Source: an uncultured Clostridia bacterium
GTDB lineage: Bacteria > Bacillota > Clostridia > Christensenellales > UBA3700
DNA length: 64,000 nt
Assembly: GCA_947174325.1 (NCBI GenBank)
Contig: CAMWIL010000002.1
Location: 4,485 to 68,484, forward strand
Reading direction: 5' to 3'
The notes below the pieces were generated by a model. That model was given only the letters and a program-made list of their open reading frames with translations. It searched no databases and was not told the DNA's origin. Positions 15,418-50,849 of this stretch are shown piece by piece. Position numbers and translations under genes: made by a program. Every line of letters begins with the position of its first letter. The first letter of the stretch is position 1.

Positions 15418-15678
15418 CTAACGGATCAGCCTATATCCTATGCCTCCCTGCTCTGCGTATACCGCGTATACGGTATATTGAACCTTGGTCGGAGAAGATT
15501 TCATCAGGTTTGACAGCGTAAGCGGCGATATGTTGTTGATTTTCAACGCAATTCCGCAAGAATGCGTGATACTTCGCGGCGCGTTTATGATAGCGCAAGA
15601 AACGCCTCGGCTACCTAAGTAACTTCGCATTGTCAAAGCGTCGTTGCGGGAGCGAAAAACTATTACAAGATAATTCAT
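15418..15678 (-). CDS. DUF3343 / putative Se-S carrier-like small protein
   Basis: 86 aa, VIVFRSRNDALTMRSYLGSRGVSCAIINAPRSITHSCGIAL pattern. AAGGAG SD. Divergent from a cysteine desulfurase gene. Confidence 0.6.
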   Translation of the reverse strand: MNYLVIVFRSRNDALTMRSYLGSRGVSCAIINAPRSITHSCGIALKINNISPLTLSNLMKSSPTKVQYTVYAVYAEQGGIGYRLIR

Positions 15679-22981: not shown

Positions 22982-23149
22982 GTAAAATATTTTTAACTTA
23001 ACAAATAAAAAGTCGTTGACTCAACTCAAATTCAAATTGTGTTTTTTACGATAATGACATCATCAACAGCATAATTCACCATTAAATGCTGAAAATTGTC
23101 GGATATGTGTAGATTATATCGAATATTTGAACATAATTCAAAACATTGT

Positions 23150-23836
23150 TCAATTTTGATCGCTTATAAATTCAAGTAAAATCGAGTAGCTTTGAATGTA
23201 GTTTTTGCACAAAGCGGAAAAATCCTTTTCGCTATTAGAGTATTTATCATATACTCCGCAGGTCAAAAAACCGCCCGCGCTCGCGCCTTCGATAGCAAGA
23301 GGGATATCTTCAAATACCATACACTCGCTTGGCTTGATTCCAATCTTTTCCGCAGCTTTAAGATAGATATCGGGAAATCCTTTTCCCCTTGATACCTCTT
23401 CAATTGAAGTAAGAGGACAATATACGCCTAATTTGCGATATGACAAACCGTTTCTGTCTAGACAGATTTCGGCAACGTCTCTAAACAGCGTCGTAGCAAA
23501 AGCTACCTTTACGCCTTTTGACAATAGTTTTCGAATAAAATCATATGCGCCGTCTTTTAACTTTATATTATTCGCATACTCTTCTTTCACCATCTCAACC
23601 CATCTGTTTTTTATTTGTTCGGTAGTCAAAGGCAGAGAAAAGCGCGTTTTCGTATACAAAGCCAACTCTTCAAAATGCATTTGCTTTACAGCTTCGGTAT
23701 AGTCGCTTGTGACAGTCAAGCCGTTTTCGGCAAGAAATTCCCTATCGACCTTTTCCCAAACCCACATAGAATCAAGCAACGTTCCGTCAAGATCGAATAT
23801 CACGCCTTTGATTTCTTCTCCAAATAATTTTACCAT
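23150..23836 (-). CDS. HAD-IA family hydrolase (beta-phosphoglucomutase / sugar-phosphatase-like)
   Basis: Motif I IFDLDGTLLDS and a C-terminal FEDIPLAIEGASAGG motif. Confidence 0.85.
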   Translation of the reverse strand: MVKLFGEEIKGVIFDLDGTLLDSMWVWEKVDREFLAENGLTVTSDYTEAVKQMHFEELALYTKTRFSLPLTTEQIKNRWVEMVKEEYANNIKLKDGAYDFIRKLLSKGVKVAFATTLFRDVAEICLDRNGLSYRKLGVYCPLTSIEEVSRGKGFPDIYLKAAEKIGIKPSECMVFEDIPLAIEGASAGGFLTCGVYDKYSNSEKDFSALCKNYIQSYSILLEFISDQN

Positions 23837-43658: not shown

Positions 43659-45653
43659 TCAATTAAGCGATACGCCCTGCATCACGGCAAGATATTTGGC
43701 AAGCATTTCGTCATACTCGGTGAAAATACCGCCCTCTTCCATAAGCGAATCGGCAATGTATTTGCACTCTTCTATAATTTTTTTGTTGATGAATACTCCT
43801 ATCTTTCCGCTTCCGCCGCTTTGATTTATACCCAAGAAATCCCCATAACCGCGCATATCGGCGTCGATCTCGGCAATCTTCAAGCCGTCTTTGTTGTCTC
43901 GCAACGCTTCAAGCCGCAAATTCTCTTCTTGCTTGGAAGTATGCAAAAAGCAATAAGACTTGATCTGCGGATTTCTTCCCACTCTTCCTCTCAACTGGTG
44001 CAGTCCCGCCAAACCAAACCTGTCGCTGTTGAGAACCGCCATAACGCTTGCTCTTTGAGAATCTATACCGACTTCTATGACTGAAGTCGCTACAAGCGCG
44101 TCAATGTCGCCTGCGTAAAATCTTGACATGATCTCGCTTTTGTCTTTTTCTTTCATACTTCCGTATATAAGACCCACGTTGATGTCGGATAATTCCTTTT
44201 TGACAAGTTGTTTGTATAACATCTTTGCAGAAAAGACTTCAAGTCCTTCGCTGTCCTCGACTAGCGGACAAACGATATAAGCCTGCTCTCCATAGGACAC
44301 TCGTTCTTTAATAAATTTGTAAAGTCCTTTGAGCTTATCGTCGCCCATAACGAAAGTAGTGATATTGTCGCCCGTACCCTCGCGAGGTTGAAGCGTAGAC
44401 ATATCCAAATCGCCGTATAGCGACAGCGCAAGCGCTCTCGGTATCGGAGTTGCGCTCATAACTATAACGTCCACGCCTATCGCCTTATCTTCAAGCTTAC
44501 TCTTTTGTCTTACGCCGAATCTGTGCAATTCGTCTATTACTATAAGCCCTAAATTGTCAAATTTGACCTTATCATTGAGTACCGCGTGAGTACCGACGAC
44601 CAGATCGATCTCACCCTTTTGCAATTTAGATATTATATCTTTCTTTTCTTGCGCGGGTGTCGACGCAGTAAGCAAAGCGACCTGCATAGCGTCCCCAAAT
44701 AACGTTAGGGCGGTCTTATAATGTTGCCTTGCCAATATCTCGGTCGGAGCCATAATCGAAGACTGTTTGCCGCACTTTTTGGCAAACAAACACGATAAAA
44801 GCGCAATTACCGTTTTGCCCGAACCTACGTCCCCCATCAACATTCTATTCGTATGTTTTTCGCCTTTGAGATCGGCGATTATTTCTCTTATCGCTTTATC
44901 TTGCGAAGGAGTAAGCGCATACGGCAAAGCGGCTATCTCATTTTCTATCGAAGAAAGATCCTGCAAATACGGATGCGGCTTTTTGTTGTCGCTGTTGTTC
45001 TTGACTACTCTATACGCAATGATTTGATAAACCAATTCCTCAATCGCTATACGCTTTCTGGCAACGTTACAATCGGCAATATCCAACGGCTCGTGAACTA
45101 TCCGAAACGCGCTGTCCAAAGACATATCCGTATAGTCGTCCAGTTTGCTGACTACCTTATACGAATCAAGACAACTCTTTACGATATTTCTGAAAAGTTG
45201 CTGACCGACAACGTCTTTAAGCGGATAAATAGGAACGATGCCTTGAAGTCTCTTATTTTCCTCGGCGCGCTCAAAACTCGGATTGGACATCTCGATCTTT
45301 TTTCCGTTGAGTCTTGCCTTGCCCCAAAACAAGAATTCGCCTCCCTGTTTGATAAGCGGCAGGACAAACGGCGAATTAAACCACGTGAGTTTTATCTTCT
45401 TTCCTTGCGTATTTAGCGTAGCCGTGCAAAAAGTCAAACCTCTCTTAGCTCTTATCAGTCCGCTTATAGAAGTAAGAGTTCCGCGCAATAAAACGTAATC
45501 TCCGCTTTCTATTTCGTCCAAAACTGTTTCTTTGGTCATATCCCAATAGAATTTCGGATAGAAATATATCGCGTCTCTTACGCTTTCTATACCCAACTTT
45601 TTAAGTTTTTCGAGAGTTTTCTCTCCCACGCCTTTAATATCGATCAGTTCCAT
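43659..45653 (-). CDS. recG: ATP-dependent DNA helicase RecG
   Basis: 664 aa with a wedge domain plus SF2 helicase motifs (GDVGSGKT, DELHRFG, SATPIPR, QLRGRVGR). Confidence 0.95.
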   Translation of the reverse strand: MELIDIKGVGEKTLEKLKKLGIESVRDAIYFYPKFYWDMTKETVLDEIESGDYVLLRGTLTSISGLIRAKRGLTFCTATLNTQGKKIKLTWFNSPFVLPLIKQGGEFLFWGKARLNGKKIEMSNPSFERAEENKRLQGIVPIYPLKDVVGQQLFRNIVKSCLDSYKVVSKLDDYTDMSLDSAFRIVHEPLDIADCNVARKRIAIEELVYQIIAYRVVKNNSDNKKPHPYLQDLSSIENEIAALPYALTPSQDKAIREIIADLKGEKHTNRMLMGDVGSGKTVIALLSCLFAKKCGKQSSIMAPTEILARQHYKTALTLFGDAMQVALLTASTPAQEKKDIISKLQKGEIDLVVGTHAVLNDKVKFDNLGLIVIDELHRFGVRQKSKLEDKAIGVDVIVMSATPIPRALALSLYGDLDMSTLQPREGTGDNITTFVMGDDKLKGLYKFIKERVSYGEQAYIVCPLVEDSEGLEVFSAKMLYKQLVKKELSDINVGLIYGSMKEKDKSEIMSRFYAGDIDALVATSVIEVGIDSQRASVMAVLNSDRFGLAGLHQLRGRVGRNPQIKSYCFLHTSKQEENLRLEALRDNKDGLKIAEIDADMRGYGDFLGINQSGGSGKIGVFINKKIIEECKYIADSLMEEGGIFTEYDEMLAKYLAVMQGVSLN

Positions 45654-45770
45654 AGCAATAGTATATATCCTATATAATTAAAAAGACAAGCAATTTTTCA
45701 GCTTATTAAAAGATTAGAATTCAAAAGAATTATCGCAATATGCTATCATTTTAAAATCGCCACAAAGTTT

Positions 45771-45786
45771 TTGAACACAGTTCAGT
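45771..45786. repeat. Copy A of 16-bp motif TTGAACA-N-WGTTCAGT
   Basis: TTGAACACAGTTCAGT, in the yloV-recG intergenic region. Confidence 0.6.
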
Positions 45787-45884
45787 TATTCGGTCGACTC
45801 AATTTAAACGGAAAATTTCAGATATAAAAACTACGACGACGAGCGACACGAAATTATGAATAAATTAAATTATATAGTTGTGAT

Positions 45885-45935
45885 AAAAATTATATATCCT
45901 ATATCGCAAAACTAACAAAATTTTACGATATAGGA
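45885..45935 (-). terminator. Stem-loop downstream of yloV (possible terminator)
   Basis: TCCTATATCG (45897-45906) pairs with CGATATAGGA (45926-45935), with a 19-nt loop. On the minus strand it is followed by TATATAATTTTTATC. Confidence 0.4.
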
Positions 45936-45949
45936 CGATAAATACGATA

Positions 45950-45965
45950 TTGAACAAAGTTCAGT
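45950..45965. repeat. Copy B of 16-bp motif TTGAACA-N-WGTTCAGT
   Basis: TTGAACAAAGTTCAGT, 18 nt from the yloV stop codon. Confidence 0.6.
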
Positions 45966-45982
45966 TTGGATAAATATCCGAA

Positions 45983-47617
45983 TTATTCTACTGAGATCAA
46001 ATAGTAGTAATGAGGTTGACCGCCGAAATAACTTACAACGTCAAAGCCTTCATATTTTTCTTTGAGTTTTTTGACGAGTTTATCAACGTCTTTCTTGCTC
46101 ACGCCCTCTCCGTAATAGAGAGTGATCACCTCGCTCCATTCGTCAACGAGCTTTTCAACAACGGCAAGCGAAGTTTCTTCTACGCTTTTACTATCGGCTA
46201 TAATAAGTTTGCCGTCTAGACCTATAATATCGCCTTCTGTGATCTCAAAACCATCTAAATTGGTATTTCTGACTGCATTTGTAACCTGTCCGCACTTCAA
46301 ATCTTCATAAGAAGCGGTCATTTCTGCAACGTTGACGTCTATAGGTTGATTGATATCGAACGCAAACGCCGCTCTAATACCCTGCGCAACTTCGACAGTA
46401 GGTATGACAAATATATTCTTTTTGGTCAATTCTTTGACTTTTTCCGCAGCCATTATGATATTTTTGTTGTTTGGCAGGATAATTATGTTGTCCGAATTGA
46501 TTTTTTCTACCGCATTGAGAATATCCTCAACGCTCGGATTCATTGTTTGTCCGCCCTCGATAACCTCATCAATGGTCAATTCTTTGAAAATATTAGCAAT
46601 TCCTTCGCCTGCGCAGATAGAAATCACGCCGATTTCTTTCTTAGTATGCTCTTTCTCTCTGATCAACTCGCGATGTTGCTCCAACATATTCTCGATTTTG
46701 ACCTTGCCGAGCTCTCCAAGTTGCAAAGCGTAATACAACGCCCTGTTAGGCTGATTGGTATGAACGTGAACTTTAATCAAAGACACGTCGCCGATCACTA
46801 TTACGCAATCGCCGATAGCCATCAACTTATCTCTAAGCTTTTCAACATCTTCTTCGGTTATATGTTTTTTGAGATTTATAACAAAATATTCTGTACAATA
46901 AGCATACTTTATATTATCAAGGTCATGTTCGTCATTTCCAAACGCGTCAAGCGTCGGCGCAGGTACTACGGCATTTTCGCTTTCTTCGATTATTTCAGGG
47001 ATATCTATGCCTGCCAAAGCATTGTAATAGCCTTGCAATACGCACATAAGTCCCTTACCGCCGGCGTCCACAACTCCCGCTTGTTTCAATACAGGCAACA
47101 TATCAGGCGTTTTTTGAAGAATTTCCTCGCCTTTTTTAATAAGCTGTTCGAAAAAATTGATAAAAGAAGCGTTTTTGCTTGCAATCGACGGCGCGTTTTC
47201 AGCCAAATATCTGATAACAGTCAACACCGTGCCTTCTTTTGGCTTTGTAACTGCGTTGTAGGCTATTTCTCTCGAATGTCTCAACGCGTTGGCAAACGCT
47301 TTTGTCGTGATAGATTTCTCATCGGAAAGCACTACCGCCAAACCTTTGATTATCTGTGATAATATTACTCCCGAGTTACCTCTAGCGCCTTTGAGCGCGC
47401 CCCTTGAGTATGCTGTCAAAATTTCTCTTATATCGTCAGTCTCTACGGACTTTACTTCCTTTATTGCCGACTCCATTGTCAGCGACATATTCGTTCCCGT
47501 ATCGCCATCGGGAACCGGAAAGACATTCAGAGCGTCAACCATTGCTTTATTGGCTTTCAAATATCTGTAGCCGCCGTCGAGCATCTGCAATATCTTGGCA
47601 CTATCCAAAACTTTCAT
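45983..47617 (-). CDS. DAK2 domain-containing protein (YloV-like)
   Basis: 544 aa. N-terminal Dak2 motif (PVPDGDTGTNM) and a DegV-like C-terminal half. Sits in the position of B. subtilis yloV. Confidence 0.85.
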   Translation of the reverse strand: MKVLDSAKILQMLDGGYRYLKANKAMVDALNVFPVPDGDTGTNMSLTMESAIKEVKSVETDDIREILTAYSRGALKGARGNSGVILSQIIKGLAVVLSDEKSITTKAFANALRHSREIAYNAVTKPKEGTVLTVIRYLAENAPSIASKNASFINFFEQLIKKGEEILQKTPDMLPVLKQAGVVDAGGKGLMCVLQGYYNALAGIDIPEIIEESENAVVPAPTLDAFGNDEHDLDNIKYAYCTEYFVINLKKHITEEDVEKLRDKLMAIGDCVIVIGDVSLIKVHVHTNQPNRALYYALQLGELGKVKIENMLEQHRELIREKEHTKKEIGVISICAGEGIANIFKELTIDEVIEGGQTMNPSVEDILNAVEKINSDNIIILPNNKNIIMAAEKVKELTKKNIFVIPTVEVAQGIRAAFAFDINQPIDVNVAEMTASYEDLKCGQVTNAVRNTNLDGFEITEGDIIGLDGKLIIADSKSVEETSLAVVEKLVDEWSEVITLYYGEGVSKKDVDKLVKKLKEKYEGFDVVSYFGGQPHYYYLISVE

Positions 47618-47629
47618 TTTAGTCTCCGA

Positions 47630-47980
47630 TCAAACTTTTACACCCACTACGTTGACGATCACACCGTCAACTCTCATGCCGGTATACGTTTCTACGTTAT
47701 ACTTTACCGTACTTTTTATAGAATCGGTAACGGCATCTATATTTACGCCCTCTCTGAGGACAACGAAAAGTTCAATATTAATCTTATTTTTTATTGTGAC
47801 AATTTTTACGCCCTTTCCCTGTGGGCTCTTATTAAAAAACTCGCTTATACTGTCACTTAATTTGCGCGACACAAGATCGACGACTCCATAACAATCAGCC
47901 GCCGCAAAATGCGCCACCATAGATATGGCTTTATCAGTTATGATTATTCTTCCATAATAATTTGATGTCTTAACTGCCAT
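47630..47980 (-). CDS. Asp23/Gls24 family (alkaline shock protein-like) protein, YloU-like
   Basis: MAVKTSNYYGRIIITDKAISMVAHFAAADCYGVVDL fits Asp23 family N-termini. The tracked ORF starts at TTG 47998. Neither start has a strong SD. Confidence 0.8.
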   Translation of the reverse strand: MAVKTSNYYGRIIITDKAISMVAHFAAADCYGVVDLVSRKLSDSISEFFNKSPQGKGVKIVTIKNKINIELFVVLREGVNIDAVTDSIKSTVKYNVETYTGMRVDGVIVNVVGVKV

Positions 47981-48109
47981 ATATTGTAATTTTAACAAAA
48001 AAATATGCCTTATGCAAGCATTTTGAATATATTTTAGACGCCCGCATATTCTAATATAAGCAAAATCAGATTATTTTATGAAATTTTTTGAAAAAATTGC
48101 GCTATTTTC

Positions 48110-48138
48110 TTGCTTTTATTTAGATTGAGTGCTATTAT
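48110..48138 (+). promoter_or_regulatory. Putative sigma-A promoter of rpmB
   Basis: TTGCTT (48110-48115), 17 nt, TATTAT (48133-48138). GGAGG SD precedes ATG 48172. Confidence 0.6.
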
Positions 48139-48171
48139 ATTTAGGCAATATGTCAATGGAGGTATTCAAGT

Positions 48172-48363
48172 ATGTCTAAAGTATGTGCTATCTGCGGTAA
48201 AGGACAACAAAGCGGAAATAAGGTAAGCCACTCCAACCGTAAATACAGAAGAAGTTGGGGCGCAAACGTTCAAAAAGTTAAAGTTGTCAACAACAACGGC
48301 TCGACACAAAGTTTGTATGTATGCACCAGATGTCTTCGCAGTGGTGCCGTAGAGCGTGCTTAA
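48172..48363 (+). CDS. rpmB: 50S ribosomal protein L28
   Basis: MSKVCAICGKGQQSGNKVSHSNRKYRRSWGANVQKVKV..., 63 aa. Confidence 0.95.
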   Translation: MSKVCAICGKGQQSGNKVSHSNRKYRRSWGANVQKVKVVNNNGSTQSLYVCTRCLRSGAVERA

Positions 48364-48384
48364 TCTATAAACTTTAAATAAACT

Positions 48385-48413
48385 TCACTCTGCTTTGCGG
48401 AGTGATTTTTTTT
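48385..48413 (+). terminator. Intrinsic terminator of rpmB
   Basis: TCACTCTGC(48385-48393)-TTT-GCGGAGTGA(48397-48405)-TTTTTTTT. Confidence 0.85.
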
Positions 48414-48459
48414 GCAAAAATTCACTGATATCGCCCTATTTTGAATAAATTTACACAAA

Positions 48460-48475
48460 TTGAACATTGTTCAGT
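48460..48475. repeat. Copy C of 16-bp motif TTGAACA-N-WGTTCAGT (perfect TGAACA-T-TGTTCA palindrome)
   Basis: TTGAACATTGTTCAGT, between the convergent rpmB and spoVM terminators. Confidence 0.6.
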
Positions 48476-48488
48476 CGATTTTTGACAG

Positions 48489-48523
48489 ATAAAAAATACG
48501 CCCTATTCTATTGCGGACGCATT
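48489..48523 (-). terminator. Candidate terminator downstream of the spoVM-like micro-ORF
   Basis: Minus strand ATGCGTCC-(11 nt)-GGGCGTAT-TTTTTATC. 8-bp stem with two G-U pairs. Confidence 0.45.
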
Positions 48524-48552
48524 TTTATACGATATTAATCGTGATTATCAAT

Positions 48553-48624
48553 TCAGTTTTTTCTTTTGAACACCCTCAGTATCATTTTGATAAATTTAGG
48601 CGGATTGATACAAATTATTCTCAT
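48553..48624 (-). CDS. spoVM: Stage V sporulation protein M-like micro-protein (23 aa; 25 aa if started at ATG 48630)
   Basis: Not in the ORF track (<60 aa). AAGGAGG at 48640-48634, then ATG 48630 and ATG 48624. Product (MA)MRIICINPPKFIKMILRVFKRKN aligns with B. subtilis SpoVM MKFYTIKLPKFLGGIVRAMLGSFRKD (I-x-x-PKF[LI]-x-x-I-[VL]-R). Same position as spoVM in B. subtilis, between rpe and a convergent rpmB. Confidence 0.6.
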   Translation of the reverse strand: MRIICINPPKFIKMILRVFKRKN

Positions 48625-48651
48625 AGCCATATGCCTCCTTCTGGATAATGC

Positions 48652-48678
48652 AGTATATGAAAATAATAAATATATGGT
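48652..48678 (-). promoter_or_regulatory. Weak candidate mother-cell sigma (sigK/sigE-type) promoter for spoVM
   Basis: Minus strand AC (48678-48677), 17 nt, CATATACT (48659-48652). Resembles AC-N17-CATAnnnTA. Match is partial. Confidence 0.25.
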
Positions 48679-48693
48679 TACACCTAAAATTTA

Positions 48694-49338
48694 TCAAAAT
48701 TCTTTCAACGTTCTTATTGCCTTTGCAGGATCTTGCGCGCCAAAGACGTAGCTTCCGCTCACAGCAATATCCAAACCTCTTTTTGCCATTTCTTGGATAT
48801 TATCTACGCTTACTCCGCCGTCAAATTCAATCATAACGTTTCTTTCGCCTATCAACGCTTTTAATTGAGATATCTTATCCATAGTGCTTTCTATAAATTT
48901 CTGCGCCGAAAAACCAGGATAAACGCCCATAAGCATAACCAAATCGATCATATCTATATACTTTTCTATGCTTTTCACCTCGATATTGGGATTTAATACA
49001 AGTCCTACGAGTTTTCCGTGTCTATGAACGGTATCAACGATAGTTTCCACACTTTCGCTTACCTCGGGATGAAAAGTAATTATATCCGCTCCTGCGTCAA
49101 GAAATTTATCTACGTATCTTTCCGGCTTAACTATCATCAAATGAACGTCTAGAGGCAAGTCCGTATATTTGCGAATCGCCTTGATCATAGGTATTCCAAA
49201 CGTGATGTTAGGACAGAACACGCCGTCCATAACGTCGCAATGAACCCAATCAGCGCCCCATTTTGATAATTTTGCTACGTCTTCTCCCATTTTTGCAAAA
49301 TCCGCCGACAGTATTGACGGAGAAATTTTTATACTCAT
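48694..49338 (-). CDS. rpe: Ribulose-phosphate 3-epimerase
   Basis: 214 aa. PSILSADF, HCDVMDG, VDVHLM and EFDGG motifs. Confidence 0.95.
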   Translation of the reverse strand: MSIKISPSILSADFAKMGEDVAKLSKWGADWVHCDVMDGVFCPNITFGIPMIKAIRKYTDLPLDVHLMIVKPERYVDKFLDAGADIITFHPEVSESVETIVDTVHRHGKLVGLVLNPNIEVKSIEKYIDMIDLVMLMGVYPGFSAQKFIESTMDKISQLKALIGERNVMIEFDGGVSVDNIQEMAKRGLDIAVSGSYVFGAQDPAKAIRTLKEF

Positions 49339-49412
49339 ACTACTCGCTCCTATTATATCTTTTGTTTTTCTTAAATGTATAATCGATTTAATTATATTAC
49401 AGCGATAATGAA

Positions 49413-49428
49413 TTGAACAATGTTCAGT
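49413..49428. repeat. Copy D of 16-bp motif TTGAACA-N-WGTTCAGT (perfect TGAACA-A-TGTTCA palindrome)
   Basis: TTGAACAATGTTCAGT, abutting the rsgA stop codon and upstream of rpe. Confidence 0.6.
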
Positions 49429-50309
49429 TAATCATATCGCTTATTCCAACGCTTTTCCACATGAGAAAACAAGCGCAAATACCTGTCGTATCTGCTTTGA
49501 GCAATCTTGCCTTGCTCTACCGCCCGCTTAACTGCGCAATCGCTTTCTTTATAGTGATTGCAACATCTAAACTTGCAGTTGACTGCATATTCATCAAAAT
49601 CGGTATAATACGTCGAAAGCCGAGCGGGATCGAACAAAGGTATTTCCAATTTACTGAATCCGCAAGTATCCGCTATCTTCGTACCGTCGTTCAACGTTAT
49701 TATCTCAATGTGGCGTGTAGTATTTTTACCTCTTTCGCTTTTTTTGCTCAATTCACCTATCTTCATCTTATCTTCGCCTATAATAAAATTGATAAGAGAT
49801 GATTTTCCGACAGCCGATTGACCTGCTAAGCAAACGTATTTTCCGCGTATCAACCTCATAAGTTCATCAATACCTTGTCCGGTCTGCGTAGATATGACCA
49901 AAATATCGGCAATATCTTTGTAGTCGCTCGCAACATCGTTTGCGATTTGATCCGCGCCTTGCATATCCGCCTTATTGACGCAGATTATCGGCTGAATACC
50001 GTTTTCAGTCGCGCCTATGATCAATTTATCTACAAGCATCATATCAGGTTTCGGCAAAGGCGCAAGTACAATAACTATTCCATCCATATTGCTGACAAAC
50101 GGTCTTACGAGTTGAGTTTTACGTTCATGAACGCTTTCTATAATACCTTCCTTATCAACGGCAATATCCACAATATCGCCGATAAACAATTCGCCGATAT
50201 TTTTGAGTTTTCCCCTTGGAAAGCATTTTACGCTTTCGCCGTCTTCGGTCACAACGGTATATATGCCGCCTATTCCCTTGATTATCTGTCCGCTTTTTTT
50301 GACTTTGAT
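49428..50309 (-). CDS. rsgA: Ribosome small-subunit-dependent GTPase A (RsgA/YloQ/CpgA), probably initiated at a non-canonical ATC codon
   Basis: Circularly permuted GTPase motifs (NKADM, LAGQSAVGKSSLIN, DTCGF) and a C-terminal Zn knuckle (CKFRCCNHYKESDCAV). The tracked ORF starts at GTG 50252. The conserved N-terminus (GQIIKGIGGIYTV) is encoded in frame upstream of it. AAGGAG 50321-50316 lies 6 nt before ATC 50309. Confidence 0.85.
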   Translation of the reverse strand: MKVKKSGQIIKGIGGIYTVVTEDGESVKCFPRGKLKNIGELFIGDIVDIAVDKEGIIESVHERKTQLVRPFVSNMDGIVIVLAPLPKPDMMLVDKLIIGATENGIQPIICVNKADMQGADQIANDVASDYKDIADILVISTQTGQGIDELMRLIRGKYVCLAGQSAVGKSSLINFIIGEDKMKIGELSKKSERGKNTTRHIEIITLNDGTKIADTCGFSKLEIPLFDPARLSTYYTDFDEYAVNCKFRCCNHYKESDCAVKRAVEQGKIAQSRYDRYLRLFSHVEKRWNKRYD

Positions 50310-50342: not shown

Positions 50343-50849
50343 TTATATTATATCTTTATATATACTTGCTATCTCATTTAAGGCAAGATTCTCGCGATAA
50401 TGACAGCCGTATAATTCTTCGTCACCGTCCTCGTATTCTTTCATAAGCGCTTTGATTTGCCTTATTATCTCTTCGCAATCTTGCCACTTGCATACAAGAT
50501 TCAAAGATATTTCATTATCCGTATAAGATTTTTCACATTCGCCGACTATTCCGCACAAAGTATACGTACTGAAAAATACAACGTCATGATAGTATTCTCT
50601 TATCGCAAAAAGTTCCTTTATAGGCTCTACGACAAATCCGCATTCTTCTTTACACTCGCGGACAATACACTCGTCGTTACTCTCATTGCCTTCAACTCCG
50701 CCGCCCGGCAGCATAACCATCTTAGGCGCAGACGCGTGCTCGACAAATAATTTACCGTTATTTACGATAACGGCGCGGACGGCATAGCGAGTAAAATCGT
50801 ACGCTTTATCTTTTGAGTAGTTGCCGTCGAAAATCTCAATAATTTTCAT
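50343..50849 (-). CDS. NUDIX hydrolase
   Basis: Nudix box GGGVEGNESNDECIVRECKEECGF. Confidence 0.85.
   Translation of the reverse strand: MKIIEIFDGNYSKDKAYDFTRYAVRAVIVNNGKLFVEHASAPKMVMLPGGGVEGNESNDECIVRECKEECGFVVEPIKELFAIREYYHDVVFFSTYTLCGIVGECEKSYTDNEISLNLVCKWQDCEEIIRQIKALMKEYEDGDEELYGCHYRENLALNEIASIYKDII

Follow-up and report, generated by a model that had tools for sequence, protein, structure and literature searches.

What reads a short palindrome that recurs at the junctions between housekeeping genes? The question is raised by a 64,000-nt stretch of contig CAMWIL010000002.1 from an uncultured Clostridia bacterium (assembly GCA_947174325.1), in which four copies of a 16-bp near-palindrome lie within 3.7 kb, next to recG, yloV/fakA, rpmB, rpe and rsgA; we call the whole stretch the window and the copies sites A to D. 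A sequence-only reading of the window had left two explanations side by side, the operator of a dimeric regulator and a short dispersed repeat. The comparisons described here favour the operator, with the dispersed repeat the less favoured of the two, because the palindrome is kept base for base where its flanks have diverged, because it is symmetric, and because it lies close to TetR-type genes elsewhere. We put at roughly 55% the probability that the four copies are operators of a symmetric DNA-binding protein, most likely a homodimeric TetR-family regulator with BioQ-like specificity.

Four copies of one palindrome lie between genes

The motif TTGAACANWGTTCAGT has exactly four matches in the window, all on the plus strand (starting at 45771, 45950, 48460 and 49413), against an expectation of 0 in 100 dinucleotide-preserving shuffles. 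The looser core GAACNNNGTTC, for which 0.93 matches are expected, detects these four positions and nothing else, and when all 64 kb were scored with a position-weight matrix, only sites A to D scored strongly (21.6–26 bits). The four same-orientation copies described in the sequence-only reading are thus recovered in full, and so are its two perfect 6-1-6 palindromes, TGAACA-N-TGTTCA, which are sites C and D. In all four copies, as in every site in the related loci described below, the half-sites TGAAC and GTTCA are separated by exactly 3 bases.

All four copies are intergenic and none lies inside any long open reading frame (ORF) of the window, in agreement with the earlier account, which had placed two in the yloV-recG spacer, one between rpmB and spoVM, and one at the rsgA stop. 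Sites A and B share the 329-bp yloV-recG spacer: site A lies ~120 nt (its centre ~125 nt) upstream of the recG ATG (45653), and site B lies 18 nt downstream of the yloV/fakA stop (45983), before a terminator-like hairpin. Site C sits between convergent genes, with the rpmB terminator hairpin (48385–48405) on one side and a SpoVM-like mini-ORF on the other. Site D abuts the rsgA stop codon, and the rpe ATG (49338) follows ~80–82 nt downstream. A weak split copy, of uncertain membership, was found far from these, in the gap that separates the end of a HAD-hydrolase gene from an ABC-transporter gene (Table 1).

The sites are maintained at orthologous junctions in one clade

In a protein search, the window's YloV was identical to that of an uncultured Clostridia metagenome-assembled genome (GCA_029063125.1) and was followed by a series of homologues at 95, 91, 87, 85 and ~70% identity, whose loci were compared. 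Related loci L082–L090, with YloV 85–95% identical, come from independent assemblies that group as L082/83/84, L085/86, L087/88 and L089/90; sister lineages L211, L212 and L059 have YloV 66–72% identical. A reference-genome scan with a YloV alignment, in which the matches listed were all ≤67% identical (the best labelled Christensenella sp.), served as a negative control, with a distant set of 80 Clostridial loci (1.34 Mb). The clade discussed below is a genus-level group of uncultured Christensenellales-like gut Clostridia.

Loci L082–L090 carry four sites each, of 23–30 bits, at orthologous junctions. Three junctions are always occupied (the rsgA stop, the region after the yloV stop, and the region upstream of recG), and the fourth site falls in the rpe/rpmB spacer in the window genome and L082–L084, and between NUDIX and rsgA in L085–L089. 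Site by site, D has an ortholog in the identical position in each of the five related lineages, and orthologs of A were found in L082, L085, L086, L087 and L089. Orthologs of B follow the yloV stop by 10–20 nt in L082, L085 and L087, and by ~230 nt in L089; site C has orthologs in L082–L084, and L085–L089 are without it. Across all of these sites the TGAAC and GTTCA pentamers of the TGAAC-N3-GTTCA core are invariant. Site positions are identical among the independent assemblies of each lineage (L082/83/84, L085/86, L087/88 and L089/90).

The DNA around the sites has diverged. Spacer lengths vary from 54 to 200 nt for rsgA|rpe and from 289 to 765 nt for yloV|recG, and the spacers cannot be aligned; at the rsgA|rpe junction the palindrome is the only invariant non-coding block. 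When 24 sites were anchored on the palindrome, no informative column appeared outside positions −8 to +7 within 70 nt on either side, nor did this alignment reveal any further conserved element, for example a −10 box in constant register with the palindrome. The site between NUDIX and rsgA overlaps the last NUDIX codons, where it is translated as LNIVQ in L085 and L087 and, in a different frame, as IIEHCSS in L089, which argues that the constraint acts on the DNA and not on the peptide.

Outside the clade the sites are missing. No site of ≥11 bits was found at the orthologous junctions of L211, L212 or L059; L211 has a single weak match (13 bits) elsewhere in the locus, and the 1.34 Mb of distant Clostridial loci yielded one match of 14.5 bits.

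The relatives' consensus is symmetric, ATTGAACAwTGTTCAAT with A/T flanks, or wwATTGAACA-w-TGTTCAATww in its full form of 17–21 bp. The asymmetric flanks that the sequence-only reading had taken as shared by the four copies (T on the left, GT on the right) are present in the window, but they are not part of the element: the ‘T...GT’ type is a lineage-specific feature that reflects one tolerated transition in one half-site, and the relatives show it in either orientation. Across orthologous spacers, then, the sites of lineages with YloV 85–95% identical stay at the same junctions although the flanks have diverged. These are real sites, symmetric, specific to the clade, and under purifying selection at the DNA level.

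The same palindrome lies beside TetR-type genes in other genomes

A metagenome scan with the exact 17-mer found at least 120 loci, and the 120 listed were used for neighbour counts. In 22 of these 120 loci, the 5′ end of a TetR-like gene lies ≤120 bp from the 17-mer; conversely, 22 of the 25 TetR-like ORFs in the listed loci are adjacent to a site. When viral sequences were scanned with the 14-base core, the 120 matches were single and chance-like and showed no TetR association (0/120 loci with a TetR-like neighbour), and the 1.34 Mb of other Clostridia contained 1 TetR-like ORF. The site-adjacent proteins have ~200 residues and the Pfam domains TetR_N and TetR_C_33. They reached the cutoff of no named NCBIfam family, and their nearest solved structure is an unnamed TetR protein (3cjd). 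Two or more sites within 20–130 bp were found in 18 of the 120 listed loci, and the hosts range from 26 to 65% G+C. Secondary sites at the metagenome TetR loci include CTGAAC/GTTCAG variants like those in the window.

In the remaining, non-TetR loci listed, 62 genes lie downstream of the 17-mer, and among these no other regulator family was enriched. One listed match lies upstream of a bioB-like gene. Four of the 62 downstream genes encode an RF-1 (peptide-chain-release-factor-like) domain, which may mark such genes as another recurring target of this regulator family. Four loci of 62–64% G+C (L253, L260, L308 and L320) have a TetR_C_33 gene with two palindromes 31 bp apart and a divergent gene whose product begins MIKQLM.SRRFAPLFWAQF and resembles the lysophospholipid-transporter type of the major facilitators; this hints that the TetR_C_33 subgroup may control lipid-related transport. 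The eight ‘sites’ of locus L250 (1–1447) were set aside as a 22-bp tandem satellite, GTGAACAATGTTCAGTTTGTGA, probably eukaryotic, that contains the palindrome core by coincidence.

A full-text literature search for the palindrome sequence returned nothing relevant. BioQ, a TetR-family protein of Actinobacteria, has the operator motif TGAAC-N3-GTTCA (PMC3398298) and has been reviewed as a repressor of biotin genes (PMC5640590). Half-sites and spacing are identical to those of the clade sites, and the BioQ operator, too, has two-fold symmetry and is bound by a TetR dimer (PMC3398298, PMC5640590). In contrast to BioQ, the clade sites belong to a different phylum, have conserved flanks that reach ~21 bp, lie upstream of rsgA, rpe, recG, ntpD and a NYN-domain gene with no biotin gene at any of them, and have no bioQ-like gene next to them. 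Since biotin genes are missing from the sites, the clade shares an operator type with BioQ and not its regulon. The TetR_C_33 loci (L223, L253, L274, L282, L299, L317 and others) are closer in sequence, with the same extended palindrome, A/T flanks and CTGAAC/GTTCAG variants. They differ in arrangement: they often have 2–3 sites, 17–100 bp apart, directly at the regulator's own gene and in its promoter, as in autoregulation, whereas the clade sites are single or 110–310 bp apart, lie at housekeeping junctions, and have no regulator gene nearby. We conclude that the palindrome is an operator type of a TetR subgroup. Its position beside TetR genes elsewhere, together with the BioQ geometry, points by analogy to a TetR-like dimer as the most likely reader in the window's clade.

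Further sites in the clade

Two of the 120 listed metagenome loci, L326 and L245, have a trinucleotide signature like that of the window (r = 0.96 and 0.91), and a homologue of the NtpB protein of L326 shares a 107,294-bp contig with a clade YloV homologue. We assign both loci to the clade on the nucleotide signature and, for L326, also on the shared contig, so the element is not confined to the 3.7 kb of the window. In L326 and its relative L333, the 210-nt spacer that separates the V-ATPase genes ntpB and ntpD has a site at each end. The spacer is shorter in the others: 104 nt with a single site in L335, 37 nt without a site in L334, and 3 nt in the outgroup L336. In L245 two sites lie 111 nt apart at the junction between an ogg-like and a NYN-domain gene, one on the ogg-like stop codon and the other 64 nt before the NYN-domain gene. 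No further sites were found in the ~20 kb around each V-ATPase site. Overall, the density is ~1 site per 16–30 kb in ~200 kb of clade DNA; the sites are single or paired (pairs 110–310 bp apart) and typically lie directly behind the preceding stop codon or ~50–125 nt before a start codon.

How a TetR-type regulator might act, and what speaks against one

If the sites are operators, those closest to genes, 47–125 nt before start codons (197 nt in one lineage), would overlap or flank internal promoters, and promoter occlusion there is plausible from the sequence: the gene-proximal sites overlap promoter-like hexamers or are found a little upstream of them. The distal sites behind stop codons might loop with a proximal site or block read-through. 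Binding controlled by a ligand would then switch rsgA, rpe, recG, ntpD and others independently of the genes upstream. We infer the regulator family in the clade and repression or roadblocking as the output; looping or a roadblock would likewise account for the post-stop sites and site C.

Several observations weigh against a TetR-type operator. The placements (stop codons, convergent terminators, housekeeping operons) are odd for a TetR regulon, and site C and the post-stop copies, which misfit a simple operator, are the least well explained. The downstream genes have no obvious common functional theme, and the distance from the sites to −35- and −10-like hexamers is not fixed. Some sites lie in spacers that are absent or tiny in outgroups, where rsgA and rpe overlap (L211, L212) or ntpB and ntpD are 3 nt apart (L336), which is also compatible with arrival of the sites in inserted DNA. 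Neither the 64-kb window nor ~150 kb of clade loci (21-kb related loci) has a TetR-family gene beside any site, and no other transcription factor was found as a regulator candidate in the window or the clade loci searched. The one TetR gene in the vicinity, the TetR_C_8 gene near recG at 15626–16195 of L087 (also present in L088), was rejected as the regulator: it has no upstream site and a different recognition helix. Finally, the family is assigned by analogy of motif, which is indirect, and a similar palindrome could be read by dimers of other families, such as MarR or ArsR.

Other explanations

The sites share several features with repetitive extragenic palindromic (REP) elements and miniature inverted-repeat transposable elements (MITEs), and they might have been spread by a REP-associated tyrosine transposase (RAYT) or IS200-type transposase and then retained as mRNA-end or protein-binding elements. 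REP and REPIN sequences are likewise short, lineage-specific extragenic palindromes, single or paired, that occur within operons and behind stop codons; the clade copies are extragenic except for the NUDIX|rsgA site of the relatives, are often found straight after stop codons or inside operons, stand alone or 110–310 bp apart, and are restricted to one clade. The sites also go together with spacer DNA that is missing in outgroups: ntpB|ntpD spacers of 3, 37, 104 and 210 nt hold 0, 0, 1 and 2 sites, and rsgA overlaps rpe in L211 and L212. The split copy TTGAACA-N13-TGTTCAA at 23127–23153 also fits a mobile element. Nevertheless, we consider this origin unlikely. The copies resemble one another only to ~21 bp, with nothing alike beyond the palindrome and neither terminal repeats nor target duplications in the 24 anchored sites; they are sparse (4 strong sites in 64 kb, none in ~20 kb around the V-ATPase sites), and no transposase or RAYT gene was seen in the clade DNA examined. 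They are stable among strains, with no insertion polymorphism among assemblies of one lineage and differences only between lineages. Orthologous copies are identical where the flanks are saturated, which requires selection at each site and is not explained by copying, and the same sequence lies close to TetR genes in unrelated phyla. Less likely still, the sites could be positional marks, at which a TetR-like protein of the SlmA or RefZ kind would couple chromosome position to division or sporulation. Positions are conserved across the clade, some sites (C and the post-stop copies) lie where no promoter is expected, and the SpoVM-like gene suggests an organism that probably sporulates. RefZ and SlmA are TetR-family proteins whose conserved palindromic sites mark position; the RefZ-binding motifs and SlmA-binding sites are palindromes for dimers, conserved in position within a genus and independent of the regulator's gene (PMC6657595). 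Against this reading, the clade sites are intergenic and near gene starts, and site presence at ntpB|ntpD differs among clade members. SlmA and Noc sites lie mostly within genes, whereas those described here are almost exclusively intergenic, the gene-proximal ones 47–125 nt before starts.

The sequence-only reading had compared the half-sites with the Firmicute LexA (Cheo) box, GAAC-N4-GTTC, and a LexA that reads GAAC-N3-GTTC would make the element a variant SOS box. The palindromic GAAC/GTTC half-sites are indeed common to both, and two DNA-repair genes, recG and ogg (L245), are adjacent to or downstream of sites. The Cheo box consensus is CGAAC-N4-GTTCG, however, and the clade sites have flanks ATT...AAT unlike it and a spacer one base short in all >40 sites; the window contains no canonical N4 box. 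The gene set is not that of an SOS response either (rsgA, rpe, V-ATPase D, NYN and the rpmB/spoVM spacer), and TetR is the sole regulator family found by the 17-mer in the listed metagenome loci. The resemblance to LexA thus does not hold up, the geometry fitting the TGAAC-N3-GTTCA of the TetR protein BioQ (PMC3398298), and we regard an SOS box as very improbable. A transcribed hairpin that stabilises or processes mRNA at the junctions is disfavoured to the same degree. Its placement after stop codons and in operon spacers is where 3′ stabilising hairpins occur, but the predicted hairpin has just 5 pairs and −2.7 kcal/mol, is no more stable than shuffled sequence (z −1.4 to +0.2) and matches no Rfam family. 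The sequence is invariant and not covarying, without compensatory changes, and the asymmetric variants place C.A or T.T mismatches on the sense strand. Operators of the ArsR/SmtB family (CzrA/SmtB, 12-2-12) have half-sites of the TGAACA...TGTTCA type with two bases between them; the clade half-sites are similar, but their spacer is one base, and no ArsR-family gene lies next to the motif in the loci examined. An invertible promoter between paired sites was rejected on three grounds: single sites exist, the pair in the window has the same polarity, and three assemblies of one lineage show one orientation. A SpoIIID or Fur-type 7-1-7 reading found no support in the data. A TetR-type operator remains our preferred reading of sites A to D.

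Genes and features around the sites

The local gene order is priA, def, fmt, rsmB, rlmN, NUDIX, rsgA, rpe, the SpoVM-like mini-ORF, rpmB, asp23, yloV/fakA, recG and hisZGD, with all genes on the minus strand except rpmB (plus). The reading frame of rsgA stays open upstream of the called start, and translation may in fact begin earlier. The window gave no match in scans for Rfam families or tRNAs.

Table 1. Positions of the palindromes, neighbouring genes and predicted signals in the window (.., coordinates of the whole stretch).
Feature	Position	Strand	Evidence or remark
Site A, recG-proximal palindrome	45771..45786	.	exact match, 21.6 bits; gene (minus) strand reading ACTGAACTGTGTTCAAA
Site B	45950..45965	.	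exact match, 26.0 bits
Site C, perfect 6-1-6 palindrome	48460..48475	.	exact match, 24.3 bits
Site D, perfect 6-1-6 palindrome	49413..49428	.	exact match, 25.6 bits
Weak split copy, TTGAACA-N13-TGTTCAA	23127..23153	.	13–14 bits (scan span 23124–23156); membership uncertain
recG, downstream of A and B	43659..45653	-	NCBIfam RecG models, E ~1e-187, below curated cutoffs; Pfam RecG_wedge, DEAD, Helicase_C
yloV / fakA-like DAK2 gene, stop precedes B	45983..47617	-	TIGR03599 YloV, 603 bits
rpe, downstream of D	48694..49338	-	TIGR01163, 254 bits
rsgA, stop touches D	49428..50252	-	TIGR00157, 214 bits
SpoVM-like mini-ORF	48553..48624	-	MRIICINPPKFIK...
Promoter-like TTCAAA-16-TAAAAT, candidate recG promoter	45748..45775	-	consensus scan only, 9/12 matches
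Promoter-like TATACA-18-TATAAT, candidate rpe promoter	49352..49381	-	consensus scan only, 10/12 matches
Hairpin of 18 pairs with T-rich tail, just downstream of B	45896..45936	-	probable yloV terminator

The promoter-like sequence that the sequence-only reading had seen overlapping site A on the minus strand was recovered by a consensus scan, as a predicted promoter only; its TTCAAA hexamer overlaps the gene-proximal half of the site. The hexamers of the candidate rpe promoter lie 32 nt downstream of site D. For site C, the earlier remark that no promoter is expected there is a fair one. The hairpin after site B is A/T-rich and unusually long, and a counterpart of different sequence follows the equivalent of site B in L082 and L087.

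The neighbourhood also differs among the relatives in ways that concern the genes themselves. The SpoVM-like mini-ORF is on the gene strand in L082 (8954–9025), L087 (9112–9180) and L089 (9047–9121), and has the opposite orientation in L085/L086 (9034–9105, minus), unlike all other relatives; a small rpe-rpmB segment has therefore been inverted in this 91% lineage. The NUDIX gene (50343–50849 in the window) stands between rlmN and rsgA in the clade and is not found in sister lineages L211 and L212, in which rlmN directly precedes rsgA and rsgA overlaps rpe. Only the 95% lineage (L082–L084, 14354–15961) has a leucine-rich-repeat (LRR_5) gene inserted between recG and hisZ, and in L087/L088 an acyltransferase gene, the TetR_C_8 regulator gene and ABC-transporter genes take the place of the his operon behind recG.

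Discussion

The element is genuine and of a fairly ordinary kind, most likely the operator of a putative TetR-type regulator. We know of no regulation described for this uncultured Christensenellales-like gut lineage, and the sites give it a cis-element backed by selection, together with a first set of target junctions. Beyond the clade, the TGAAC-N3-GTTCA operator type, described for the actinobacterial BioQ, is widely used by an uncharacterised TetR_C_33 subgroup. The sites also raise the question of why operators of this kind should be found next to stop codons and within housekeeping operons, where sister lineages have no such spacers.

This odd distribution at housekeeping junctions leaves room for a wider reading, which we offer as speculative and rather doubtful: a TetR-like protein with some tens to a hundred sites across the genome, which would have arrived along with new spacer DNA in housekeeping operons and would serve as ligand-controlled roadblocks or insulators, or as marks of the SlmA/RefZ kind. 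If it were true, a regulator's site would have spread in the manner of a REP element, and selection would then have fixed it in a single clade of these uncultured gut bacteria, in operons for translation, the pentose phosphate pathway, DNA repair and the V-ATPase. Operon architecture in the clade would then have been remodelled by inserted, regulated boundaries.

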